This document shows positions 6,739-29,082 of a stretch of DNA of 38,579 nucleotides, piece after piece; position 1 is the first letter of the stretch; each line of letters opens with the position of its first letter. Made by a program: the position numbers and the translations under genes. The notes below the pieces were generated by a model. It ran no database searches. It saw only the letters and a list, made by a program, of their open reading frames with translations, and was not told where the DNA came from. The DNA comes from an uncultured Candidatus Saccharibacteria bacterium (GTDB lineage Bacteria > Patescibacteriota > Saccharimonadia > QS-5-54-17), in assembly GCA_964638825.1 (NCBI GenBank), contig CAZXAD010000002.1:1-38579 (forward strand). Reading direction: 5' to 3'.

Positions 6739-7218
6739 GTGTATTGGTGGATAGTAACGGCTGTCGTGGCCATGTTCGGCCTGGGCGCGGCACTCGGCGC
6801 GCCGTGGCTGCCGACGCGGCGACGCGAAACGGATACCGCGCTTGATTTGCTCGCGTTAGAGCCGGGGCAAACAGTGATTGATCTCGGGTCGGGAACGGGT
6901 GATTTTTTGCGCGGGGCAGCACAGCGCGGCGTATATGGCATAGGGTATGAAATCAATCCGATTTTATGTGCATGGTCGCTAGTGCGTACATGGCCGTGGC
7001 GGAAAAAGGTGACTATCCATTGCCGCAATTATTGGCATGTCGAATTGCCGGAGTGTGACGGCGTGTATGTATTTCTCATCAAGCGGTATATGCCTAAATT
7101 GGACCGGAAACTAATCAGTGAACTATCGCCCGGTACTTCTGTGGTGAGCTATGCTTTTCCGGTTCCAGATCGTGAAGCAAGAACGGAGCAGCAAGGGTTA
7201 TACCTGTACAACTACTAG
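6739..7218 (+). CDS. Small class I SAM-dependent methyltransferase
   Basis: GTG start 3 nt after xseB. Motif I is VIDLGSGTGDF followed by GYEINP. It has an N-terminal hydrophobic helix. Confidence 0.65.
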   Translation: MYWWIVTAVVAMFGLGAALGAPWLPTRRRETDTALDLLALEPGQTVIDLGSGTGDFLRGAAQRGVYGIGYEINPILCAWSLVRTWPWRKKVTIHCRNYWHVELPECDGVYVFLIKRYMPKLDRKLISELSPGTSVVSYAFPVPDREARTEQQGLYLYNY

Positions 7219-16640: not shown

Positions 16641-17027
16641 ATGCCAAACCTCGACTACTTCGAACGCAAGCTTGATGACAAAAACCGGTTAACCATACCG
16701 GCGGATGCCCGGGCTGAATTTGAAGACGGGGAAATGGTAATAACCCAGGGATTCGGCAACTACTTGCACCTTTATAGTAAGAAAGTATGGGATGCGGATA
16801 TGGAATCGGCACTTTCGGGAGACATCCTGGATGAACGGATCGCCGATTTAAACGTCAAATTCCGCTTGGGAAAACAAATAGCCAAGCTGGACAAAAAGCA
16901 AGGCCGCATCACCATCGAACAGCGTCTTCTGGATTATGCCGGTATCGACACTGATGTAATAGCCGTCCGGGTAGGGAAATACTGGCGGTTAATGAGTCCG
17001 AGCCGGACACAAACCCATACAGAATAA
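16641..17027 (+). CDS. mraZ: Transcriptional regulator MraZ
   Basis: 128 aa with KLDDKNRLTIPA and a second D..GR.TI repeat (KKQGRITIEQ). AAGGGA SD upstream. Confidence 0.9.
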   Translation: MPNLDYFERKLDDKNRLTIPADARAEFEDGEMVITQGFGNYLHLYSKKVWDADMESALSGDILDERIADLNVKFRLGKQIAKLDKKQGRITIEQRLLDYAGIDTDVIAVRVGKYWRLMSPSRTQTHTE

Positions 17028-17392
17028 TATCCCGACCGCTCCTTGAGACGCACAAACCAAAATTGTTAATCAATAATCCGATTTGCACATTCAAAAACCA
17101 AAACAAAAACTCACATGATTGATAAACCGTTCGCGGTTTAAACATATCAAGTGCGAGATTAGCTATGTGGCAGCCAGCAGGTGGGCTTAGGGTAAAACAC
17201 CTCAAAAACAACCCTCGCACCTCAAATCTCCAAAACAACAACTCCACCTCACACGTCTCTCTTTTTTGAAGGAATTATTTTAATTCCTTACCACAACAAC
17301 AACCCTCCCCCGCCGTTGGCGGGAGACGGGGTTTATAAAAACAAAAACTCAAGCAAAAATAAAAAGCTGGCTGCTACACAGGTGATCTTGAC

Positions 17393-18319
17393 ATGCCAAA
17401 ACAAACACAAACATCATCACCATCATCAAATCCGGAGTTTCACCAGCCGGTATTAGCAGACAGCGTAATGCGTTTGCTCGATCCCGAACCGGGCGACCGG
17501 CTTTTGGACCTCACCGCTGGATACGGAGGTCATGCACGGAAAATTATCGACCGCGCGGGCAATACGACACACCATATATTGGTGGATCGTGACGCCCAAG
17601 CAGTGGATTGTTTGCAGCGCGCGTTTACTCGCGACAATATCTCGATAATCCATAGCGATTATGAGTCAGCGCTGAACACTATAACCGATGGATTCGACAT
17701 TGTGTTAATTGATTCGGGCGTGTCGTCACCGCAACTTGACAGTAGCAATCGTGGGTTCAGTTTCTCTGTCGACGCTCCGCTCGATATGCGGATGGATCAG
17801 ACACGCGGCTCTACGGCCGCTGACATCCTGAATACCATGCCAGAGCGTGATATCGTCGATATATTGCAACGATATGGCGAAGAGCGGCTCTCAGGCCGCA
17901 TTGCGCGGGTAATCGTTGAAAACCGGCCGATAATCACCACCAAACAACTGGCCGATATCGTAACCAGCGTGTATAAAGGCAAGAGCCGTATACACCCGGC
18001 GACTCGGACATTCCAAGCGGTGCGCATCGCGGTCAACGACGAACTCGGACAGCTGGAACGAACGCTTCCCACGATTGAAAAAATTCTTAATCCCGGGGGA
18101 CGAGCGGCGATCATCAGTTTCCACAGTCTCGAAGACCGCATAGTAAAACAGTTTATCCGGGAAAGTAGCCTACAGCCACTCAACAAAAAAGTGGTGCACG
18201 GCAAAATTGAAGATGTTTCCAACCCGCGCGCCCGCAGTGCCAAATTGCGAGCGGCGATTAAAAATACAAACCATGGTCAGTCTCGCCATCGGCGGGATAA
18301 AACAAAAACAAGGAGGTAA
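17393..18319 (+). CDS. rsmH: 16S rRNA (cytosine1402-N4)-methyltransferase
   Basis: 308 aa with HQPVLADSV, LDLTAGYGGHA, DSGVSSPQLD and SFHSLEDRIVKQF. It has an extra low-complexity N-terminus and a basic C-terminus. Confidence 0.95.
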   Translation: MPKQTQTSSPSSNPEFHQPVLADSVMRLLDPEPGDRLLDLTAGYGGHARKIIDRAGNTTHHILVDRDAQAVDCLQRAFTRDNISIIHSDYESALNTITDGFDIVLIDSGVSSPQLDSSNRGFSFSVDAPLDMRMDQTRGSTAADILNTMPERDIVDILQRYGEERLSGRIARVIVENRPIITTKQLADIVTSVYKGKSRIHPATRTFQAVRIAVNDELGQLERTLPTIEKILNPGGRAAIISFHSLEDRIVKQFIRESSLQPLNKKVVHGKIEDVSNPRARSAKLRAAIKNTNHGQSRHRRDKTKTRR

Positions 18320-18321
18320 GT

Positions 18322-18402
18322 ATGGCTATTAAAGTAAAAGCACTCGGCAGCAATGCACGGGCACAAAAAGTAGCAGTAAAAGCTCTCGAGCCAGTTGCCT
18401 AA
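18322..18402 (+). CDS. Candidate 26-aa small ORF (MAIKVKALGSNARAQKVAVKALEPVA)
   Basis: ATG lies 5 nt after a strong AGGAGG (18311-18316) that overlaps the rsmH stop. A hairpin follows. No homology is claimed. Confidence 0.3.
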   Translation: MAIKVKALGSNARAQKVAVKALEPVA

Positions 18403-18419
18403 ACAGCAACGCGCACAAA

Positions 18420-18448
18420 CCCGCCCCATTTTCTGATAATGGGGCGGG
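18420..18448 (+). other. GC-rich hairpin (11-bp perfect stem CCCGCCCCATT/AATGGGGCGGG, 7-nt loop) inside the dcw operon
   Basis: The arms were verified. No U-tract follows, so it is not a canonical intrinsic terminator. Confidence 0.6.
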
Positions 18449-18521
18449 GAATTGTCATCAAAAACACAAACAATAAAAATGCTCGTTATCGTCGATAACG
18501 GGTCTTTAGGAAACAAAAACT

Positions 18522-18869
18522 ATGTATCAACAACAAGCATTAATGCGTCGGCAGAATTCCCGTGGTGTACGCCGCAATCGGAATTTCAATGCACACACCG
18601 CAAGCAAGACACTCGGTCCGGTAACCTCGACATTGTTTTTGGTCATTATTATCGGAGTATTATCACTTTTATATTTAACGCAAATCACTAAAACCAGTAC
18701 GTACGGGTATGAAATCAACGACCTTGAACAACAACAAGCTGCATTGCAAGAGGAGCAGCAGGAATTACAAGTAGAAGCAGCCCGGTTGCAATCGGTAGCC
18801 CGTATAGAAAACTCTCCAGTCGCTTCAGAACTCGAATCGGAAACCAACGTTACCTATGACAGGCAGTAA
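18522..18869 (+). CDS. ftsL: Cell division protein FtsL-like (bitopic, coiled coil)
   Basis: 115 aa with a basic N-terminus, one TM helix (LFLVIIIGVLSLLYL) and a Q/E-rich coiled coil. Its position between rsmH and ftsI fits FtsL. Confidence 0.7.
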   Translation: MYQQQALMRRQNSRGVRRNRNFNAHTASKTLGPVTSTLFLVIIIGVLSLLYLTQITKTSTYGYEINDLEQQQAALQEEQQELQVEAARLQSVARIENSPVASELESETNVTYDRQ

Positions 18870-20583
18870 GTCACGCATTACTATTATCGGCATCATCTTT
18901 ATGATATTGGGAGCAGCGGTAGTGGCTCGATTGGGGTACCTGCAGGTACTGCGGCATGATTATTTCGCTGTACTGGCCAGCCAAGCCCATTCGCGCAAAT
19001 TTGAAATACCTGCTCGCCGGGGAGAGATATTTATGCAGAATCGCGGAGAAACGGTGCCGGTTGCGATGAATCGCAATTTACAAACACTATATGCCGATAC
19101 CCGTTATGTATACGATACGCCTCGTATAGTCAGAGAATTAAAAAATATCACCGGTACAGATTATTCAGAAATTCTAGAACGCACCGAAGGGTACACGGTG
19201 TTAGAGGAAGAAGTAAAGCGTGAAACCGCGAAAAAGATTAAAGATAAGCAGCTTTCCGGCATAGGATTGAGTGATAACTTTACCCGGGTATATCCGGAAG
19301 GAGTACTGGGCGCACAGATGATCGGCTTCGTGAATGATGACGGTCAAGGCCAATACGGTGCTGAAGAAGCGCTTAACGATACGCTCGCCGGGCAACCGGG
19401 TTTATTGGATGCTGAAACTGACGCCCGCGGTATACCGATTGCCGCAGAAGAAAACGTGCAACGGCCTTCCCGCGATGGCCAGGATGCCGTTTTAACTATC
19501 GACCGCAATATCCAGGCGTATGCGGAAAAAGCCCTCAAAAAGGGAGTAGAGGAAACAGGGGGCGAATCAGGGCATGTCGTTATCATGGACCCGAACTCCG
19601 GAGAAGTTTTGGCAATGGCGAATTACCCGAATTATGACCCGAACCAATATGAAGACGTGCAGGATTATCAATTGTTTCGAAACGCGGCGACAAGCCAGCA
19701 ATTTGAGCCGGGTTCCGGGTTTAAAGTGTTTACCATGGCAGCGGGACTCCAGTCGGGCAGCATAACTCCCGAGGAAACGTATTATGACAGCGGGTCAGTA
19801 CAGGTAGCCGACCATCGGATTGAAAATGCCATGGGCGGCAATAAGACGCGCAGCATGACCGAAATAATAACGCACTCGGTAAACACCGGCGCTGTTTACA
19901 TACTCAAACAACTCGGCGGAGCGGACGATTCAGACACCGGAAGCATCACCGAAGCTGATAAGCAGACACTGTATGACTATTATGTAAACCGATTCCGATT
20001 GACAGATCCGACCGGTATTGAACAACCGGGCGAACCGGATTTGACCATGCATAAACCTTCTGAGGTCGGTCCTGTTAATTATGCCAACATGGCATTCGGC
20101 CAGGGAATCACGACCACCATGACGCGTATGGTCGCGTCTATGAGCGCGGTTATTAACGGCGGAACGCTTCACGCACCCAGTATGGTAGATTACTACCGTT
20201 CCACTAACGGAACTACCCGCGACATAACTCCGGAAGTAATCGATGAAAACGTGGTGTCGGAAAAAACCTCCCACCAAGTGCGGACCATGATGGAAACGGT
20301 CGTAGAGGAAGGGGGCGGGTACGCGACGCGGGTCGAAGGACACCGTATCGGGGGTAAAACGGGGACGGCGCAGATGCCTCGGCCTGATGGCGGCTATTAT
20401 AACAATCGTGATATCGGCACGTTTACCGGTTTCGCGCCCGTGGAAAATCCCGAGTATATTATGATGGTTCGCGTAGATAATCCTCAGGTGCCGGGGTATG
20501 CTGGTTCAGCGGCGGCAGGCCCTATTTTCGGTGATATAATAGAATGGTTGTTGCGCTACGAAGGTGTTCCGCCTACCGAATAA
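18856..20583 (+). CDS. ftsI: Penicillin-binding protein (class B transpeptidase, FtsI/PBP2B-like)
   Basis: 575 aa with an N-terminal TM anchor, SGFK (SxxK), HSVN (SxN) and KTGTA (KTG) in the correct order. Confidence 0.92.
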   Translation: MTGSKSRITIIGIIFMILGAAVVARLGYLQVLRHDYFAVLASQAHSRKFEIPARRGEIFMQNRGETVPVAMNRNLQTLYADTRYVYDTPRIVRELKNITGTDYSEILERTEGYTVLEEEVKRETAKKIKDKQLSGIGLSDNFTRVYPEGVLGAQMIGFVNDDGQGQYGAEEALNDTLAGQPGLLDAETDARGIPIAAEENVQRPSRDGQDAVLTIDRNIQAYAEKALKKGVEETGGESGHVVIMDPNSGEVLAMANYPNYDPNQYEDVQDYQLFRNAATSQQFEPGSGFKVFTMAAGLQSGSITPEETYYDSGSVQVADHRIENAMGGNKTRSMTEIITHSVNTGAVYILKQLGGADDSDTGSITEADKQTLYDYYVNRFRLTDPTGIEQPGEPDLTMHKPSEVGPVNYANMAFGQGITTTMTRMVASMSAVINGGTLHAPSMVDYYRSTNGTTRDITPEVIDENVVSEKTSHQVRTMMETVVEEGGGYATRVEGHRIGGKTGTAQMPRPDGGYYNNRDIGTFTGFAPVENPEYIMMVRVDNPQVPGYAGSAAAGPIFGDIIEWLLRYEGVPPTE

Positions 20584-20622
20584 ATGTTAGTATTTAAGCA
20601 ATAGATAAAGGGAAAAATCAAT

Positions 20623-21678
20623 ATGGAAATACTCAATAGCGGACTATTAGATCCAATCATTATCGATCCACGAATCGTATTGCGTTTAATGTGGGCGGCG
20701 GCTACTGGATTTCTGCTGGCAATGTTGTTAACCCCGGTGTATACTCACTTTGCTTTTAAACATAAAGCATGGAAACGCATCCGCGAAAACGCGACTTCCG
20801 GAGAAAAAGCGCCAATATTCCATAAACTCCATGAGGAGAAACACAAGCGTAATATTCCTACCATGGCGGGAATTGTTATGGTGGTTACGGTAGCCGTGAT
20901 CACCATATTGTTTAATTATGACCAGGCGCAAACATTACTTCCGCTTGTCGCGCTCTTAGCCGCCGGAGCAGTCGGGCTGATCGATGATTTTATAAATATA
21001 CGTGGACAGGGAACAGGGGTAGCCGGCTTGCGCTCGCAGTTGAAATTCTGGTTAATCCTTCTTATCGCTGCTGGAATTAGCATGTATGCATACGTGAAAC
21101 TGGACTACACCAGCTTAGCAGTGCCGTTTCTTGAACAAGTACCGTTCGGATGGCTGATTATTCCGTTATTCATGCTTGTGATACTCGCTTCTGCGAACGC
21201 GGTTAATATAACTGATGGACTGGACGGATTGGCTGGAGGTTTGCTTACAATCGTTTTCGCTGTCTACACCTTAATCGCTATGCTGCAAGGTAATTTTGGA
21301 ATCGCTGTATTTTGTGCCACGGTAGTAGGCGCTCTCTTGTCATATACGTGGTTCAATGTGCATCCGGCCCGGTTCTTCATGGGTGATGTCGGATCATTCG
21401 CATTGGGTACTACGCTGGGCGTAGTGGCGCTCTTAACCGATACCGTATTACTGCTGCCGGTGATTGCAGCGGTGTTTGTATTAGAAGCCGGTTCTAGCAG
21501 CCTGCAACTGCTTTCCAAGCGGATTTTTAAGCGGAAAATTTTCCGTTCAGCTCCTTTGCATCACCATTTTGAAGCCATTGGATGGCCGGAAAGCAAAGTT
21601 ACTATGCGCATGTGGATTTTAGGTGCTATGTCAGGCACATTAGGATTGATCATCGCGGTGCTGGGAGGGCAGTTATGA
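20623..21678 (+). CDS. mraY: Phospho-N-acetylmuramoyl-pentapeptide transferase
   Basis: 351 aa, polytopic, with NAVNITDGLDGLAGG, GDVGSFALG and APLHHHFE. AAGGGA SD upstream. Confidence 0.95.
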   Translation: MEILNSGLLDPIIIDPRIVLRLMWAAATGFLLAMLLTPVYTHFAFKHKAWKRIRENATSGEKAPIFHKLHEEKHKRNIPTMAGIVMVVTVAVITILFNYDQAQTLLPLVALLAAGAVGLIDDFINIRGQGTGVAGLRSQLKFWLILLIAAGISMYAYVKLDYTSLAVPFLEQVPFGWLIIPLFMLVILASANAVNITDGLDGLAGGLLTIVFAVYTLIAMLQGNFGIAVFCATVVGALLSYTWFNVHPARFFMGDVGSFALGTTLGVVALLTDTVLLLPVIAAVFVLEAGSSSLQLLSKRIFKRKIFRSAPLHHHFEAIGWPESKVTMRMWILGAMSGTLGLIIAVLGGQL

Positions 21679-22877
21679 GCCAGACCCGGGGACACCGGGC
21701 TGACACCAGTCTCATATTATTATTAGGTATTTTGTTAATGGTAGGTCTGGTGGTGATTTATTCAATCAGCCCTATATTAAGCCGTGAATTGCTGGATGGG
21801 GCGGGCCGTAATTATTTCGCCTATGCACAGTTGCGGCATATTGCTCTCGGGGTGATATTGTTCGCAATTGCTACTCGTGTACCGTTACGAATATGGCGAA
21901 AATTGCTGCCGTGGCTGGCTGCTGCATCCGCGATGTTTCTGTTTCTTATGCTTACTCCGCTCGGTGTGAGCGAGGGAGGGGCTACCCGGTGGCTCGGAGT
22001 GGGCGCGTATACCTTCCAGCCGGTGGAATTGGTGAAATTCACGGTAGTTATCGGAGCGGCGGCATGGTTTGCCGGGCTAAAAGAGAAAGAAGTACAAAGT
22101 TATAAGTACGCGCTGTTCCCTCTGATGGGGGTGTTAGCATTAATCGCGGTTTTCGTATTAGTGCATCAGAAAGATCTGGGTTCGATGCTCGTGATTGCCG
22201 TTATCGCGACTACCATATTTTTCGCAAGCGGCGTCGGGTGGCGGCAGCTCGCCTATTTATCAGGAGCCGGAGTCTTGGCGGGAATACTCAGCATTATTTT
22301 GGTTCCGCACCGAATGGAACGGTTCCGTACTTTTTTTAATCCCGAAGGCGGTCTGTCAGAAAGCAGCTACCACCTCCACCAGGCACTGATCGCGGTTGGT
22401 TCGGGCGGATTGTTCGGTCTTGGGCTCGGGAAAAGCGTTCAGGTTTACGGGTATTTGCCAGAAGCAGCCAATGATTCTATTTTTGCTATAATAGCCGAAA
22501 CATTCGGGTTAGTGGGAGCTACCACCGTACTGCTACTGTTCGGACTGCTTGTTTACCGTTGTCTTGTAATCGCGCAACATACCGAAGATACGTTCAGCAC
22601 GTACATTGCTCTTGGTATTGCTGCATGGATAGGCGTACAGGCATTGATTAATATAACCGCCATGATCGGCATCATTCCATTAACTGGAATTACGTTGCCG
22701 TTTATAAGTTATGGAGGTTCGAGCTTAGCATCTGTTATGCTTGCTATGGGAGTGGTCACCCACATATCGAAATACACAGCAAGGACGCCACATGAAAATC
22801 GTAGTCAGCGGGGGCGGCAGCGGCGGACACATAACGCCTATTTTGGCAGTCGCTCATCATCTAATATCACGCGGTAA
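21675..22877 (+). CDS. ftsW: Peptidoglycan glycosyltransferase / lipid II flippase FtsW (SEDS family)
   Basis: ATG 21675 overlaps the mraY TGA (ATGA). Polytopic, with PVELVKF, EAANDSIFA and TGITLPFISYGGSS. The ORF track's longer start at 21582 lies inside mraY. Confidence 0.92.
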   Translation: MSQTRGHRADTSLILLLGILLMVGLVVIYSISPILSRELLDGAGRNYFAYAQLRHIALGVILFAIATRVPLRIWRKLLPWLAAASAMFLFLMLTPLGVSEGGATRWLGVGAYTFQPVELVKFTVVIGAAAWFAGLKEKEVQSYKYALFPLMGVLALIAVFVLVHQKDLGSMLVIAVIATTIFFASGVGWRQLAYLSGAGVLAGILSIILVPHRMERFRTFFNPEGGLSESSYHLHQALIAVGSGGLFGLGLGKSVQVYGYLPEAANDSIFAIIAETFGLVGATTVLLLFGLLVYRCLVIAQHTEDTFSTYIALGIAAWIGVQALINITAMIGIIPLTGITLPFISYGGSSLASVMLAMGVVTHISKYTARTPHENRSQRGRQRRTHNAYFGSRSSSNITR

Positions 22878-23868
22878 CGAACTGCATTATATCGGTTCGG
22901 GGAATTCACAAGAATCCCGATTATTCAAAGGATCCGGCATTGCTATGCATACAGTACCGACCGGTAAATACCGGCGATATTCAGGAAATGCATGGTGGAA
23001 AGCACTGCTTGATATAAAGACTCTGGTACTTAATATTCGCGATATGATACGATTCGCGGCCGGTTTTCTTAAAAGCGTGTGGCTCTTGGTGCGATTGCGC
23101 CCTGATCGGGTATTCGTGAAAGGCGGGTACGTCGGGCTACCCGTTGGATTGGCGGCTTGGGTGCTCCGCATACCGTTTATCATCCATGAATCGGATAAAG
23201 TGCCGGGATTAACTAATCGTATACTCCAGCGGTTTACCCCATACCGCGTATCCGGATTTGATACGGAAGGGTTTGTTCCTCTTGGCAATCCTGTTCGAGA
23301 AGATATTCTTCGTCCAGCACCCCTGGACCGGAATCATTTTGCTATAAAGAGCCAAAAACCTATTGTGTTAGTGTTCGGGGGGAGCCAAGGTTCGCATGCT
23401 ATCAACGAGGTGGTGGGGGAGTTGGCCGCTTCTTATGATGATATGGAAATTATCCATGTCCACGGCCGTTCATCTCCGGAGAAAATGCCATCGTATGCGC
23501 ATTATCACCCGTATGAGTTTTTGATGGAGGATATGCCGCACGCATTGCAATTGGCTGATGTAGTAGTGGCGAGAGCCGGAGCCAATACATTAGCCGAACT
23601 TGCGGTTTTAGCCAAACCCTCCATTATTATTCCGCATCCGAATTTGAGTGGTGATCACCAGACCGAAAACGCAGTATCCTGGAGGGATAGTATCGTAATG
23701 ATGCCACAATCCGAGCTGACAGCACCCGCGTTGCACGATCAACTGGACCGAATCGTTAATGACTCCAAAATCAAGCAGGCACTGTCACACGCTATTGCGG
23801 AACGTGCGAACCCTCAAGCAGCGGCTGATATCGCCGAATACGTCATTAACCCCCGGGAGGCCTCATAA
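22792..23868 (+). CDS. murG: UDP-N-acetylglucosamine--lipid I transferase
   Basis: Starts MKIVVSGGGSGGHITPILAVA (G-loop) and has a C-terminal GANTLAEL. The start at 22792 lies behind AAGGAC and 86 nt inside the ftsW ORF. Confidence 0.92.
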   Translation: MKIVVSGGGSGGHITPILAVAHHLISRGNELHYIGSGNSQESRLFKGSGIAMHTVPTGKYRRYSGNAWWKALLDIKTLVLNIRDMIRFAAGFLKSVWLLVRLRPDRVFVKGGYVGLPVGLAAWVLRIPFIIHESDKVPGLTNRILQRFTPYRVSGFDTEGFVPLGNPVREDILRPAPLDRNHFAIKSQKPIVLVFGGSQGSHAINEVVGELAASYDDMEIIHVHGRSSPEKMPSYAHYHPYEFLMEDMPHALQLADVVVARAGANTLAELAVLAKPSIIIPHPNLSGDHQTENAVSWRDSIVMMPQSELTAPALHDQLDRIVNDSKIKQALSHAIAERANPQAAADIAEYVINPREAS

Positions 23869-24663
23869 ATGTCCGACAAGCAACGCCAGAAACAGAAGAA
23901 TAAGAAAACCCCGCAGTCACCTTCAGGATTCCAGGCCCGCTATTATCGGGGCGATACGCGTGCTCAAACGTCACGCCGCACGCCGTGGTGGCGGAAAATT
24001 GTGCTGATCGTTATCATTGGCAGCTTGTTGAGTGGCGCGTGGATATTCGGCCGGGTAGAGGCGATTTCGGTAACCGGAGTGAACGATAAGAAGGTTGTTC
24101 GCACTGTGCACCGGCAACTCAACCAGCACTATACATTCTTGTGGCATGCGTACACGAAACCGGTTGAAGAGACGATTCGTTACCCTGACAACATCGATCA
24201 TGTAACACTTTCAGCGGATTGGATGAATCAGCGTCTTGTCGCGTCAATCAGAAAAGCTTCGCCGGCATTATTATGGAAGACAGAAGGGGATACATTTATC
24301 GTCAATAAACAGGGGCGAGCGATACGAAAAGCCGAAGATACCGGCCAAACGCTCCCCGTTATTATCGATGATTCGGGATTACCGGTTAATACGGGGGAGC
24401 AGATAGCGCCTGAAGATTTTGTTGCGTTCGTGAGCAAAGTAAAGAGTGGAGAACTTCCAATTACCCGATTACGTATCGTTGACACCACGCGTGAATTGTA
24501 TGCGGATCTGGAAGATGGCTATTATGTACGGTTCGATACTACTGCGCCGGTAAAAACGCAGCTAGAAAACGTCCAGCGCGCGCAAAAAACAGCCAAACGT
24601 AACGGCGATACTATCACCGAATATATTGACGTCCGATTACCGTATAAAGCGTATTATAAATAA
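23869..24663 (+). CDS. ftsQ: Cell division protein FtsQ/DivIB-like (POTRA)
   Basis: 264 aa with a basic N-terminus, one TM helix and a POTRA-like segment (VEAISVTGVNDKKVVRTV). The ATG abuts the murG TAA. Confidence 0.7.
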   Translation: MSDKQRQKQKNKKTPQSPSGFQARYYRGDTRAQTSRRTPWWRKIVLIVIIGSLLSGAWIFGRVEAISVTGVNDKKVVRTVHRQLNQHYTFLWHAYTKPVEETIRYPDNIDHVTLSADWMNQRLVASIRKASPALLWKTEGDTFIVNKQGRAIRKAEDTGQTLPVIIDDSGLPVNTGEQIAPEDFVAFVSKVKSGELPITRLRIVDTTRELYADLEDGYYVRFDTTAPVKTQLENVQRAQKTAKRNGDTITEYIDVRLPYKAYYK

Positions 24664-25020
24664 CACCTATGCTATAGGTAACATGTAACTATTTCGCATA
24701 TAACAAAAGGAGGTAACATGTATCATATAGCAATTTTCAAAACTTTTTAACTGCTACATGAAACATGGTAAATCTATGCTACATGATAATTGATACATAT
24801 AGTCCATGCTACTTGGTGGAGTAGTGCCCCGCCCTCCCCGTTTTCTGTTCGTTTTTTGTTCATATAACTAAATGGTGGCCCCAGATAGAAATTATTTTTA
24901 TATATTTAAATATAATATATGCATATAGTCAAATAGGCGAGAGAGAAGAGTAGGAGAGAATAGAAGTGGAGTAGTGTCAAATAAATAATCGAACATGCAT
25001 CCGTGTGTGGTCTGTGGAAA

Positions 25021-25038
25021 ATGTGATTTAAATCACAT
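25021..25038. promoter_or_regulatory. 18-bp perfect palindrome ATGTGATTTAAATCACAT (exact TGTGA-N6-TCACA, CRP/FNR-type half-sites)
   Basis: Verified base by base. On the - strand, TTGACA (25054-25049) lies 17 nt upstream of TTAAAT at the palindrome centre. Confidence 0.5.
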
Positions 25039-25235
25039 AGTAATAAGTTGTCAAAAATAATACGGAACTCAACGGAGCACGCTCTTGGAATGAATCACAG
25101 TACGCATAATCAATAAAAGCGCGGCATGTAACACGAAAGTTCCTGAGAGTAGTGTTATAAGGGTGGATGAGAGTACTCTCCCCCTATAAGCACTCTTATG
25201 CCAGGATATTAAATGGATATATAATGCTTTTCCGT

Positions 25236-25275
25236 AAAAATTGAAGTACGTCGCAAAATATACATTGTGCGACGT
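25236..25275 (-). terminator. Candidate intrinsic terminator of the ATPase gene
   Basis: 8-bp stem ACGTCGCA/TGCGACGT (25248-25255 and 25268-25275) with a 12-nt loop. On the - strand a TTTTT run follows after 7 nt. It lies 93 nt past the stop codon. Confidence 0.4.
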
Positions 25276-25367
25276 TATAGTTATGTAAGGGTTCGCTTAC
25301 TTTTTTTATTTGCTTGTGACTGTCCTCGTGTTCATTATGTGTTTTTGTATTCTCTTGCTCCCTTTTG

Positions 25368-28052
25368 TTATTTACGTCTCCGTAGCTTCACCACTTCGTC
25401 CGGTCGCAAGTTCGCGTCTGAGTCTGAATCTTGGCTGTTTTGCGTTTGCGGCTGATTTTCAGGTTTTGTTTGGACTGGTCTTTTTTGTTGCTGCTGCTGT
25501 CCGCCTGATGCGTGTTTCGGTTTTTGTTTGTGTTGGTTGCTGCGATTTTGACTCCGTTGTCCGCCTCCGGCGTGCTGTCGTTGTTGTTGCTGCTGTTGTT
25601 GTCCGCCTGAGCCGGATTTCGGTTTTTGTTCATCCACTTGTGTCCAGGCGCGGATTTTCTGCTCAACCTCTGAGCGTCCAGAGGCGAAGGTACTGCGCGA
25701 ATGTTCGATAATATTAGGTATAAAGTCGCTTTCGGTATCAGGAACACTTAAAGAGTGGGCAGTGAACGGCGGCGCTTTTTCTCCGTCGATACTCATATTG
25801 ATAATGAAGTTTTGGTTATGAAGTTTTATGAGGTCTTCGCTTTCGAATGTGGGCGAGAAATATTTGGCCAAATACGGCGCGTCGTCCGCGCTAACACGGA
25901 AAGAGATGATCGAACCCACGTTACCGAATACCGCGTCGCGGACCTCCTGGGACATTTGCGATATATACTGGTTGGCGATCGTCAGGTTCAACCCGTATTT
26001 GCGGGCTTCTGATAATATAACCGCGAATGAATCCGTGGCAAAATTCTGGAATTCATCCACGTATAGATTAAACGGGCGCCGTTCTTCCAAGTGCGTGATG
26101 TTGGCCCGGCTCATGGCGGCCAGCTGGATTTTGGTAACCATGAGAGCACCCAGAGTGGCTGCGTTGTCCTCCCCTACCTGGCCGCGACTCAGGTTGACGA
26201 TTAAAATTTTACCCTCGTCCATCATTTTCCGGATATTAAAGGCGCTCTGAGGTTGGCCGATGATGTTGCGAACCAGCGGATTAGCAGTGAAGGCGCCTAC
26301 TTTATTCAGGATGGGCGCAACTGCTTCAGAGGCAAACTTTTCGTTCCAGGAAGCGAACTCGTTCACCCAGAAGTTCTTGACCACTGGATCCTGGATTTCT
26401 TTGATTACATCATCGCGGAATTGCTTTTCCGTTAACATGCGGGTTATGCCGAGCAATGTGGCGTTTGGGTAATCCAGTAGCGCCAGGATGGTATACCGCA
26501 GAATATACTCGAGCCGTGGCCCCCAAGAGTACCCGAACATGCGCTTTAGAGCTCCCACAACTTCTGAAGAAATGTGGCTTTTAAGGCTTGGGTCAGTAAC
26601 TTCCAGGGGATTGAATGCCACCGGGTATTCCGTATCAGCCGGATTGAAATACACTACGTCCTTCACCCGGTGTTCAGGGATATATCGTAACACATCGGCT
26701 GCAAAATCCCCGTGGGGGTCGATAGTGGCAAATCCTCCTCCATGGTAAATATCTGAAAGTGTTAATAACAACAACAAATAGGATTTCCCGGTGCCGGTTT
26801 GCCCTACTACGTACACATGCCGGCCACGGTCGCTTCGTTTAATACCGAATTGGTGGTTATGCCCCCGGAAATTTGTCACGCCTATCGGGCTTAATTCTTC
26901 TTGGGGTATGGTTGCTACCGATGGAAGATTAGAGGGTGGTTCGGCCGTTTTGTTATTCGCCCATACTACATTCGGGGTTTCGACGTTCGCGTGAGGCAAG
27001 TGGTACAGACTGGCGAGCTCCTCGATATTTAGAATAAACCCTCTATCAATGAATAATCGGGCGCGGTACTGTTTGATTGCTTCCTCGCCGCTGAGTTGCT
27101 TGCTGGATTTGAAGCCGTTGGTAACGTCATTGAATTGTTTGAACGCGCCGAGTAATGCTTGCATACGCAGCCGTGACAACGTTTTATCATTGCCGATATG
27201 GACGATTCGTACTTTTACTTCGTATCCGAGTTTGGCAATTTTATCGTTCGTGGATTGGATCATAGCTTTTTGTTGGTCGGAGACTTCGGGTTGTTTACTC
27301 CCTCCTTCCCCACTGTTGGGCGGTTTCCAGAGCGCGACAAAAAAGTCGCCGAGTAGTTTCTGCAATTTTCCGCCGGTTCCTGAACCGCCGCTTCTGAGCC
27401 GGGATATATATGCTTCGCCTTTTTTATGCCAGCTATCTTCGATCGGCCGGGCCAGTATTTGTATCCACGCTTGTTCGCTCGGATCTTCAAGTTTGGCCAA
27501 TACAGCGGTAATTCCTCCTAATGGATCAACTTCAAAACTATTAAACGTGCGGATCGGTAATACGTCGGGATTGGATAGTTTCAGCTCTAAAGATTCAGCC
27601 ACGTAGTTTTCAGGTAGTTCTTGGCGGGCATAATCTTCATTCAGTTCCACGATATTTACGCTTGGGTACTGGGCATATACCTGACCTTCTATAAAATTCT
27701 GTAAATGGTGGGGCGTCCAGATATAGAAACGGATTTTTTGATCAACGGCCGCGATTTCAAAACTGATGTGTTCCTGTATCCCTCCCTCACGCAATAATTC
27801 CTGTTTAGGCCGCAGAATTCCATGCAAACTGGCAAAAAGTTGTTCAGCGGAAAGCTCACGTTTCTCATTGTTGCGAGGCAACTCCAGCATGAGGAGACTG
27901 TATTTGGAATCGCTCACCCAGCGTTGTTTGCGCACATTCTGCCAGATAAGAAAACCGAAGACAGCCACGACAACTACCCAGCCGCCCCAATCAAAGAGCA
28001 ACTTGCCCAGAAACTGGATAATTGTAAAAAATATACTGAAGAGAAGATTCAT
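25368..28052 (-). CDS. Membrane-anchored P-loop ATPase, VirD4/TraG/TraD (type IV coupling protein)-like, with a Q-rich disordered C-terminal tail
   Basis: 894 aa with N-terminal TM helices, Walker A GQTGTGKS and IDPHGD. A long helical insert precedes Walker B (LYVDEFQNF), followed by SEARKYGLNLTIANQ. The tail is ..QKPKSGSGGQQQQQQQ..QKPKHASGGQQQQQ... Confidence 0.8.
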   Translation of the reverse strand: MNLLFSIFFTIIQFLGKLLFDWGGWVVVVAVFGFLIWQNVRKQRWVSDSKYSLLMLELPRNNEKRELSAEQLFASLHGILRPKQELLREGGIQEHISFEIAAVDQKIRFYIWTPHHLQNFIEGQVYAQYPSVNIVELNEDYARQELPENYVAESLELKLSNPDVLPIRTFNSFEVDPLGGITAVLAKLEDPSEQAWIQILARPIEDSWHKKGEAYISRLRSGGSGTGGKLQKLLGDFFVALWKPPNSGEGGSKQPEVSDQQKAMIQSTNDKIAKLGYEVKVRIVHIGNDKTLSRLRMQALLGAFKQFNDVTNGFKSSKQLSGEEAIKQYRARLFIDRGFILNIEELASLYHLPHANVETPNVVWANNKTAEPPSNLPSVATIPQEELSPIGVTNFRGHNHQFGIKRSDRGRHVYVVGQTGTGKSYLLLLLTLSDIYHGGGFATIDPHGDFAADVLRYIPEHRVKDVVYFNPADTEYPVAFNPLEVTDPSLKSHISSEVVGALKRMFGYSWGPRLEYILRYTILALLDYPNATLLGITRMLTEKQFRDDVIKEIQDPVVKNFWVNEFASWNEKFASEAVAPILNKVGAFTANPLVRNIIGQPQSAFNIRKMMDEGKILIVNLSRGQVGEDNAATLGALMVTKIQLAAMSRANITHLEERRPFNLYVDEFQNFATDSFAVILSEARKYGLNLTIANQYISQMSQEVRDAVFGNVGSIISFRVSADDAPYLAKYFSPTFESEDLIKLHNQNFIINMSIDGEKAPPFTAHSLSVPDTESDFIPNIIEHSRSTFASGRSEVEQKIRAWTQVDEQKPKSGSGGQQQQQQQRQHAGGGQRSQNRSNQHKQKPKHASGGQQQQQKRPVQTKPENQPQTQNSQDSDSDANLRPDEVVKLRRRK

Positions 28053-28059
28053 TTACTAT

Positions 28060-29082
28060 TTATTCATTCAGTGCGTAGGTCGCTTTGGCCACGCGTTTAA
28101 ATTGGTCCTTCCCTTGTAAGTTTAATATAATTGTCGTTGGTTTTACATGGCGTTGTTCAAGCACCCGTTTTATGATCTCGTCACGGTGCAAGGGTGATTC
28201 TTTGTGCAGAATATCTTTAATAACATCCGCAACCGTACCGGTATTGAATCCCCATTCGCGTAACGCGTAAATCCCCCTCCCTACAAGAATAAACCGTTTA
28301 TCTTTTATTAATTCATTATGAATTGCTTGAGTAGTTACGTCTTTGCGTTTGAAATCGGATTTCTTTATCTCTTCGGCGATTTCATTAAAATGCATCGGTT
28401 TTTGCTGGCGCTGCAGGATCACGAAAATCTTGTCCCGGATGCTTTTGGGGTTTACTGCCGGCCACGTATCGAGCCCCCACTTATCATCTAACTGCGCTAA
28501 TCCTTTGGTAGAACGTGCCAATCCGTGCAGATGGTGTTTTTCGAGTTGGCCGGAAAATTTCTCATGAAGCGCATCGAGATTTATCGGTTCCCCCATTTTT
28601 TCTACTGTTTTCACCAAGTCGTCGCGTAATTGTTTGAGTGTTTTGTGGTCATGGTGTTGGTGTAAAGCCAAACTGTGGTGGAAATGATCGTTATCAATAA
28701 TAACGGCGATATCAGGTACCAGATGAGCAAGAAAATTTATGTGGGCGTGTTTATCGGTACCGCTATGATGGGCAACTTCGTGAAGCGGAGCGATCCGCCC
28801 TAATTTTTCCAGTATCGAGACAAAGTGGTTGCGTATTGATTCCATGTGCGGATGTTCCAATTGCTGGAGTCTCAACAAGGTATGCTTTTCTATCTGCCGT
28901 ACACGCTCCCGGGTGATTCCGAGCGCGCCGCCGATTTCTTCCAGTGTTTCCTTGCGTCCATGCAAGCCGAAGCGCCGCGTGATGATTTCCCGTTCACGGT
29001 CTTTGTCCACGGTATCTAGTATATCCGTTACCAATTGGTGAATATCTAATTTTGCTATATCGGATGTTGCTGTTGTTTCCAT
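28060..29082 (-). CDS. DNA-binding protein: sigma-70 region 4 HTH + His-rich linker + two HARE-HTH-like winged helices (no sigma region 2)
   Basis: 340 aa with REREIITRRFGLHGRKETLEEIGGALGITRERVRQIE. The central region is His-rich. The C-terminus has two ..F.(L)VGRGIYAL..W and ..FKRVAKATYAL motifs, as in RpoE-delta/HARE-HTH. The stop is 7 nt before the ATPase ATG. Confidence 0.7.
   Translation of the reverse strand: METTATSDIAKLDIHQLVTDILDTVDKDREREIITRRFGLHGRKETLEEIGGALGITRERVRQIEKHTLLRLQQLEHPHMESIRNHFVSILEKLGRIAPLHEVAHHSGTDKHAHINFLAHLVPDIAVIIDNDHFHHSLALHQHHDHKTLKQLRDDLVKTVEKMGEPINLDALHEKFSGQLEKHHLHGLARSTKGLAQLDDKWGLDTWPAVNPKSIRDKIFVILQRQQKPMHFNEIAEEIKKSDFKRKDVTTQAIHNELIKDKRFILVGRGIYALREWGFNTGTVADVIKDILHKESPLHRDEIIKRVLEQRHVKPTTIILNLQGKDQFKRVAKATYALNE

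Follow-up and report, generated by a model that had tools for sequence, protein, structure and literature searches.

Which function accounts for a gap of 0.7 kb, free of open reading frames (ORFs), at a point where gene orientation flips from + to - in the genome of an uncultured Candidatus Saccharibacteria bacterium? The question is raised by a window of 38,579 nucleotides (the whole stretch of DNA analysed here, contig C2 of a 668-kb assembly in 80 contigs), in which positions 24664-25367 lie between the end of ftsQ (24663, + strand) and the end of a gene for an ATPase of 894 amino acids (aa) (25368, - strand). A sequence-only reading of this DNA had considered a replication terminus, a replication origin and an unannotated non-coding RNA (ncRNA). 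Our results favor a more specific answer, namely that the gap is very probably the chromosomal Xer/dif locus of Saccharibacteria, with a 28-bp core at 25248-25275. This answer is carried by the anatomy of the core, its uniqueness, its conservation across the class, the presence of the enzyme genes and a prophage inserted at the core, all of which are observed. The description of the gap itself was confirmed: the longest ORF wholly within it is 32 aa, the flanking genes converge, and a 62-aa frame (25267-25455, + strand) starts in the gap and then runs antisense to the ATPase gene.

The core, ACGTCGCAAAA/TATACA/TTGTGCGACGT, is a near-palindrome in which 11-bp arms surround a 6-bp centre, and one arm differs from the reverse complement of the other at 1 position. 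It is the most important element of the gap and was missing from the list of repeats and palindromes in the sequence-only reading. When the gap DNA was searched against 40 relatives, almost only positions 25248-25276 were conserved, as a 22-29-nt piece; 27 genomes from many families matched, most of them with 93-100% identity. Relatives retrieved through protein similarity carry the label Candidatus Saccharibacteria or Saccharimonadales. The genome that holds the window has 1 copy, even when up to 6 mismatches are allowed. A class survey was made with a 24-nt core pattern (at most 3 mismatches) in 201 genomes sampled across the class; the pattern was present in 173 and single-copy in 171 of these 173, and the reversed pattern, which served as a control, gave 0. 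Wherever it occurs in these genomes, the core lies between ftsQ and the VirD4-like ATPase gene, and at the loci examined it is found 75 bp to 2.6 kb downstream of the latter, always in one orientation. The core is absent downstream of the ATPase gene at the Gracilibacteria and Peregrinibacteria loci, and we therefore regard it as specific to Saccharibacteria.

An imperfect inverted repeat of 11-6-11 that is unique and intergenic is the known Xer/dif layout (PMC2958812, PMC2731167, PMC3025954). Variation among copies of the core is concentrated in the centre (TATACA, GATATA, GGTACA, GATACA), GTCGCAAAA and TTGTGCGAC hold, and the sequence flanking the core is unrelated between genomes; conserved arms, a variable centre and unrelated flanks are the pattern reported for dif (PMC2731167). 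Moreover, five of six pairs are formed at positions 7-12/17-22, the dif criterion of PMC3025954. The centre and right arm, TATACA-TTGTGCGAC, match TATACA-TTATGCGAC of the published Magnetospirillum dif (CGTCGCCATAA-TATACA-TTATGCGACAA) at 14 of 17 positions. Only one asymmetry between the arms is conserved, GCAAAA versus GCACAA. An RNA hairpin on either strand could not tolerate all of the variants seen in the arms (GTCGT on one side and GTACGAC on the opposite side), and we therefore argue that the core is a DNA site.

The enzymes of such a system are encoded in these genomes. Among 26 relatives, 22 encode a single Phage_integrase-family protein of Xer size (305-340 aa) and a further 2 encode two or three; the 2 relatives without such a gene are assemblies only 81-84% complete. 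The recombinase encoded in the genome of the window (C4:1804-2775) combines a SAM-like N domain with a catalytic domain, and its C-terminus is of RHR-Y type. Its scores are 252 bits against the XerD model, 248 against XerC and 232 against XerA, and it reaches 128 bits against the XerS model, whose cut-off is 267. Full-length FtsK is present in all 26 relatives, and a fragment on contig C64 of the same assembly matches FtsK_gamma with 93.6 bits. One recombinase together with near-identical arms fits the pattern of single-recombinase systems.

A prophage lends further weight to this interpretation. An IMG/VR search with the exact 20-nt core matched two contigs, L163 and L164. The first reads, in order, ftsQ, the full 28-mer (1327-1354), 5.5 kb of - strand genes and a second site (6843-6861), a hybrid copy in which the centre and right arm are identical (19 nt) and the left arm is degenerate. 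Encoded in the 5.5-kb element are a rolling-circle initiator of G2P type (Pfam 44.5 bits, phrog_3419), an assembly ATPase of Zot type (Pfam 25.9 bits, phrog_197), a protein of 404 aa and several membrane-like ORFs of 50-70 aa; no integrase gene was found in it. Its architecture appears to be that of a Xer-exploiting filamentous prophage, inserted exactly at the core. Because the inserted phage is without an integrase, a host recombinase would have to act on the core, and the full and hybrid sites that bound the prophage are indirect evidence that it does so. The second contig, which is flagged as viral, has the exact core at 765-784, followed by + strand ORFs, one of which resembles a tailed-phage portal weakly and below threshold (SU10_portal, 22 bits); this contig may represent another type of element that uses the core, or a piece of host DNA. 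Among the 201 genomes, two copies of the core occur only in G081 (C5:15206 and C21:7653) and G188 (C6:29 and C7:68050), one of the G188 copies being at a contig end, and further insertions bounded by the site may be present in both genomes.

By analogy with characterised Xer systems we infer which protein cuts, that it depends on FtsK, and that its role is dimer resolution. A single Xer-type tyrosine recombinase would bind both arms of the core. After replication, FtsK would, with its gamma domain, bring the two dif copies of a chromosome dimer together at the septum; the recombinase would then cut at the edges of the central hexamer, and strand exchange via a Holliday junction would lead to two monomers. 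The order in which strands are exchanged probably depends on the conserved asymmetry of the arms. Integrase-less filamentous phages would integrate via the same core and enzyme.

The core stands in a larger, partly conserved arrangement, the features of which are as follows.

23869-24663, + strand: ftsQ/divIB, last gene of the dcw cluster and conserved left neighbour (Pfam FtsQ_DivIB_C; tblastn synteny across Saccharibacteria loci)
24664-24827, unstranded: lineage-specific spacer with AGGTAACATGTA twice, a 25-nt TGCTACATGA unit two to three times and a 10-codon ORF linked to a Shine-Dalgarno (SD) sequence; no counterpart in family relatives
24828-24861, + strand: C-rich patch, then Block A, TGTTCGTTTTTTGTTC (24846-24861), a TGTTC-N6-TGTTC direct repeat in an 11-bp register
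24889-24935, unstranded: A/T block with a TATAAT-like hexamer (24911-24916), then Block B1, GTCAAATA (24928-24935)
24936-24983, + strand: purine-rich patch, then a second TGTCAAATA (24975-24983); composition and position conserved across families
25013-25038, unstranded: DnaA box TGTGGAAAA (25013-25021) abutting the 18-bp palindrome ATGTGATTTAAATCACAT (25021-25038)
25039-25247, unstranded: poorly conserved spacer, unique in the genome, with GAGAGTACTCTC (25169-25180) and an ATAA-N6-TTAT dif candidate (25179-25206)
25248-25275, + strand: dif-type Xer recombination site (very probable); single copy, conserved across the class, prophage in L163
25285-25307, + strand: terminator-like hairpin GTAAG-GGTTCG-CTTAC followed by T7, read from the sequence; not conserved in relatives
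25368-28052, - strand: VirD4/TraD-like membrane ATPase, conserved right neighbour (Pfam, NCBIfam; 54-81% identity across Saccharibacteria)

An alignment of the region downstream of ftsQ across related genomes, which had been proposed as a check, showed conservation of the 28-bp core and of ordered islands to its left. These islands, invariant in an alignment of family members and then of other families, run from a C-rich patch through Block A (TGTTCGGTTTTTGTTC), an A/T-rich stretch, TGTCAAAT(A) and a purine-rich patch to TGTGGAAAA. Their orientation is fixed and their spacings are stable, with 72-82 bp from Block A to Block B, 74-85 bp from Block B to the DnaA box and 176-291 bp from the box to dif. 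All 8 aligned sequences, which represent 4 families, carry the TGTCAAAT island unchanged, at 72-82 bp from Block A. The A/T block, purine block, DnaA box and 18-bp palindrome named in the sequence-only reading are thus real and belong to a conserved module. Over some 400 bp left of dif, this module appears to consist of motifs conserved at the level of DNA (Block A, the GTCAAATA boxes, the purine patch, and the DnaA box with its palindrome).

Nearly every Saccharibacteria locus examined has the Block A pattern, TGTTCGGTTTTTGT with at most 2 mismatches, at 161-445 bp to the left of dif. Block A lies in no conserved reading frame, and it was rejected as a general terminator motif, having just 4 loose matches in the genome. 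Judged by its TGTTC-N6-TGTTC form, it might be bound by winged-helix domains in tandem. Further copies of Block A, in direct orientation, lie in the coding region of the ATPase tail, where its complement encodes a conserved EQKPN/K; in the window, Block-A-like copies lie at 25513-25528 and 25616-25631 (EQKPK/EQKPN motif). The two copies of Block A are often roughly symmetric about dif (-372/+383, -300/+298, -411/+419). The tail of the ATPase is disordered and rich in Q and K, and its short conserved peptide EQKPN/K is often followed by FLGxLKNP (also at loci L088-L091). Since the tail DNA GAACAAAAACCGAACA is the reverse complement of Block A, a 3' untranslated region of the dcw transcript would complement the ATPase mRNA over 16 nt.

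The DnaA box has the same orientation and lies 176-291 bp left of dif at loci from several families. Its 9-mer, TGTGGAAAA, is identical to the boxes upstream of dnaA in the same genome, and a sequence nearly the same as the neighbouring GTGATTTAAATCAC, namely GTGATTTATATCAC, lies next to a DnaA box at the dnaA promoter. Judged by this match to the organism's own consensus, the single box in the gap appears to be a genuine conserved DnaA box. The GTGA-N6-TCAC form of the adjacent palindrome is conserved in family f1. A CRP-type regulon of GTGA-N6-TCAC sites was rejected (10 sites versus 10.2 expected); A/T-centred sites of this form number only two, here and at dnaA, both beside DnaA boxes. It is tempting to see in Saccharibacteria dif the core of a class-conserved nucleoprotein module of ~0.6 kb that ties dimer resolution, or the selection of the site at which it takes place, to DnaA or to the state of the cell cycle. 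We offer this only tentatively and consider it rather improbable. Its components would be the TGTTCG-N5-TGTTC repeats, which look like response-regulator sites and bracket dif after ftsQ and in the ATPase tail, the GTCAAATA boxes, and the DnaA box with the palindrome that recurs at the dnaA promoter. Such a module, if true, could explain how dif functions away from where forks meet.

Other parts of the gap are lineage-specific. The repeats and palindromes listed in the sequence-only reading are all present, with one coordinate off by one: AGGTAACATGTA at 24676 and 24711, a tandem 25-nt unit at 24752 and 24777 with a third TGCTACTTG at 24807, GTGGAGTAGTG at 24816 and 24966, GAGTAGTGT at 25147, the 18-bp palindrome at 25021-25038 and GAGAGTACTCTC at 25169-25180. 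Against 500 dinucleotide-preserving shuffles, the gap is enriched in repeated 9-mers (11 versus 2.1 expected, P = 0.002), repeated 11-mers (3 versus 0.16, P = 0.01) and perfect 12-nt palindromes (4 versus 0.27, P < 0.002). Block A follows the ftsQ stop after ~20-40 nt in family relatives, that is, the spacer 24664-24827 has no counterpart there. The initial 165 bp of the gap, where the GGTAACATGTA and TGCTACATG repeats lie together with the SD-linked mini-ORF, occur once in the genome and may be read as lineage-specific filler. In the relative G003 (L004/L084), 450 bp separate ftsQ from Block A, and the extra spacer carries 2 copies of a hairpin-forming unit of ~35 nt, ATGTCATCCTGAA-TT-TTTCAGGATCT, which resembles a miniature inverted-repeat element; the space after ftsQ therefore seems to accept small insertions in several lineages.

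Several candidates within the gap were discarded. The alternative dif candidate ATAA-N6-TTAT (25179-25206) shows no conservation beyond CCCCCTAT, which is common to 3 of 5 family members. A repeated mobile element was ruled out, every segment of the gap being unique in the genome, and a second half-site in the gap, which would be the scar left by an integrative mobile element that exploits Xer (IMEX), was looked for and none was found. The small ORFs at Block A, at the DnaA box and behind the SD sequence (10 codons) were rejected as coding, as frames differ or stops intervene across relatives. The + strand intrinsic terminator (5-bp stem, T7) lies 10 bp past dif and suggests that + strand transcription crosses dif in this genome.

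Whether the locus is also the replication terminus was examined by GC skew and gene orientation. On its own contig, mean GC skew is +0.080 left of the core and -0.004 to its right, and the cumulative curve stops rising within ~1 kb; the GC-skew check suggested by the sequence-only reading thus gave a change of slope at the core. Three single-contig relatives (G053, G148 and G031) were sampled at 50% density. The skew minimum is at dnaA in all three, and gene orientation switches at the core in these genomes as in the contig studied here. In G053 the + to - skew change is at 434-460 kb and the core at 488 kb of 916 kb, 30-50 kb apart. Several observations nevertheless weigh against the dif reading. 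The skew change of G148 is near 300 kb and its core at 426 kb of 805 kb (~125 kb apart), and the corresponding positions in G031 are near 550 kb and 702.5 kb of 795 kb (~150 kb apart); these distances, 16-19% of the genome, exceed those of most reported proteobacterial dif sites. In six single-contig genomes the core lies 82-164 degrees from dnaA, not 180, and is thus opposite dnaA only roughly. The same two neighbour genes are kept across the class, which is unusual for a terminus region, and the core could be functionally tied to the ATPase operon instead. Finally, the recombinase falls under the XerC and XerD equivalog cut-offs and passes the archaeal XerA model only.

The earlier proposal of a terminus stands in substance: a dif-type Xer site, which is a terminus-associated cis element, and a skew break are found at the core, but the core is not provably the exact meeting point of the forks, the skew change being 30-150 kb off in relatives. 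The locus marks dif and a convergence of gene orientation; that it is where forks meet is unlikely in some relatives. The blocks of 125-150 kb between the skew switch and dif in G148 (~300-426 kb) and G031 (~550-702 kb) carry mostly + strand genes and have negative skew. Their genes are apparently head-on to replication, and the same pattern is seen in two different families.

One competing explanation is that the gap is the exact replication terminus, possibly with a fork trap made of the flanking conserved blocks. The convergent gene orientation, the cumulative skew that stops rising within ~1 kb of the core on the contig itself, the switch only 30-50 kb off in G053 and a one-sided set of conserved motifs that could bind a terminator protein all speak for it. 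However, the skew of G148 and G031 changes sign ~125-150 kb before the core, opposite dnaA, so that the forks probably meet away from dif, and the position of the locus relative to the origin is not measurable in a genome of 80 contigs; on balance we find an exact terminus possible but doubtful. The core could also be a phage attachment site (attB) or other recombination site, or a regulatory palindrome of the operon formed by the ATPase gene and its sigma-region-4/HARE neighbour, with no part in dimer resolution. Its constant side and orientation relative to the ATPase gene (75 bp to 2.6 kb downstream) and its distance from the skew switch in 2 of 3 complete relatives would fit, and phage insertion shows recombination, not dimer resolution. 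Yet a phage without an integrase needs a host recombinase, and the only tyrosine recombinase in most of these genomes is Xer-type; a 28-bp intergenic site kept on the host side across 40 families needs a host function; and the distance to the ATPase stop varies widely, the core being at the 3' ends of both neighbours, a poor place for an operator. We therefore consider an attB or operator without a role in dimer resolution highly improbable.

The two remaining readings, an origin and an ncRNA, had both been raised from the sequence, and neither held up. An origin or origin remnant could be seen in the DnaA box, the A/T block and the iteron-like repeats: the box equals those upstream of dnaA and is conserved across families, the adjacent palindrome is also found at the dnaA promoter, and C-rich and G-rich patches of opposite skew flank an A/T-rich stretch. 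In this genome, however, dnaA and dnaN are on contig C55 (rpmH-dnaA-dnaN), preceded by three TTTTCCACA boxes within 80 bp as against 1 box in the gap. The rpmH-dnaA intergenic region that holds these boxes and the palindrome GTGATTTATATCAC (C55:1300-1420) probably represents the dnaA promoter/oriC region of the genome. The skew minimum is at dnaA in 3 of 3 complete relatives and the local change, from + to - or 0, has the sense of a terminus; the supposed iterons at 24664-24830 are specific to this genome and absent from relatives. We know of no precedent for a dif site 230 bp from an origin, which also counts against this reading, and we give an origin at this locus almost no credence. A structured RNA or small RNA, transcribed from a TTGACA-type box on the - strand, would be in line with the fold z-scores of the whole gap (-2.3 on the + strand, -4.2 on the - strand), with TGTCAAAT read on the - strand as ATTTGACA, a -35-like box (a perfect TTGACA-17-TATAAT in one relative), and with the + strand terminator after dif. 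Against it, Rfam 15 scans (gathering threshold and E = 10) gave nothing in the gap, and only a tRNA-Glu elsewhere plus two noise matches. RNAalifold, applied to either strand and to sub-windows of 8 sequences that represent 4 families, gave 0 pairs on the + strand and essentially none on the -, that is, no consensus structure on either. A long-range helix between the C-rich and purine-rich patches was rejected, since cognate versus non-cognate duplex energies gave no signal of co-variation (P = 0.80 and 0.36). No single RNA hairpin, whichever the strand, could accommodate the variants of the dif arms, and neither the -10 nor the terminator is conserved. An ncRNA is accordingly very unlikely. 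The gap sequence was found only in soil metagenome runs of DNA type, and none of the RNA runs searched carries it.

How does the dif locus proposed here compare with known systems? With XerC/XerD-dif of Proteobacteria and CodV/RipX-dif of Bacillus subtilis it shares the unique, intergenic 28-bp imperfect inverted repeat of 11-6-11, a place in the terminus-side half of the chromosome, the gene-orientation switch, and FtsK with a gamma domain. Its centre and one arm are close to published proteobacterial sites (TATACA-TTATGCGAC), and integrase-less filamentous phages integrate at the site as the CTX, VGJ and TLC phages do in Vibrio. Unlike in these systems, there is one recombinase gene per genome, the arms differ at 1 of 11 positions, the same flanking genes are found class-wide, and the site can be up to ~19% of the genome away from the skew switch. 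Archaeal XerA/dif, like the locus described here, relies on one recombinase at a classical 11-6-11 site whose arms are almost palindromic, has conserved flanking sequence (PMC5357621, PMC2958812), and is often 122-144 degrees from the origin, not 180 (PMC5357621, PMC2958812), which the 82-164 degrees from dnaA resemble. The recombinase studied here passes the NCBIfam XerA cut-off. In contrast, archaea are without FtsK and XerA acts alone, whereas this bacterium has a full FtsK with a gamma domain and a recombinase that scores slightly higher against the XerD and XerC models.

Two further groups are related in other respects. XerS/difSL of streptococci and lactococci and XerH/difH of Helicobacter and Campylobacter are single-recombinase, FtsK-dependent bacterial systems, and there is one recombinase here too; their sites are atypical (31 bp, or with a longer centre) and usually adjoin the recombinase gene, whereas Saccharibacteria have a classical 28-mer and, in the genome of the window, xer is on contig C4. 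The cer and psi sites of plasmids likewise combine a Xer core with ~200-400 bp of one-sided conserved flanking DNA that could bind accessory proteins. Unlike at cer and psi, the flanking blocks begin ~190 bp from the core and do not abut it; ArgR, PepA and ArcA are a cer/psi feature not shown here, and a chromosomal site with FtsK normally needs no accessory sequences.

The genes on both sides of the gap deserve a brief description. To the left, on the + strand, lies a dcw cluster of 8 genes (mraZ, rsmH, ftsL, one for a penicillin-binding protein, mraY, ftsW, murG and ftsQ; 16641-24663), which ends with ftsQ and is without Mur ligases and without ftsA/ftsZ; the order ftsW-murG-ftsQ followed by dif is kept across Saccharibacteria. 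To the right, on the - strand, are the genes for the 894-aa VirD4/TraD-like membrane ATPase and a sigma-region-4/HARE-HTH protein, then topA, dprA, pth, der and further genes. The sigma-region-4/HARE-HTH gene is upstream of the ATPase gene, and the pair spans 25368-29082. Across Saccharibacteria families identity is 54-81% for the ATPase, 42-83% for the sigma-region-4/HARE-HTH protein and only ~23-46% for FtsQ. The pair is unusually conserved, with homologues at ~40% in Gracilibacteria and Peregrinibacteria, and no secretion genes are nearby.

Xer/dif is a well-known kind of system; for its Saccharibacteria member no description was found in the searchable literature, in which we found none of dif, Xer or inoviruses for this phylum. 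Saccharibacteria and other Patescibacteria (Candidate Phyla Radiation, CPR) make up a large and barely cultivated share of bacterial diversity, the chromosome biology of which is almost unstudied. With one Xer, FtsK and a defined dif of the classical 28-bp type, they would offer a minimal bacterial system that works with a single recombinase. Both the offset of dif from the skew switch and the module with the DnaA box are small questions that can now be tested. The core can also serve as a landmark to orient and check metagenome-assembled genomes of Saccharibacteria. Moreover, it is a natural docking point for integrase-less filamentous phages, and for that reason a candidate neutral site at which genetic tools could be integrated in the few strains that can be cultivated.

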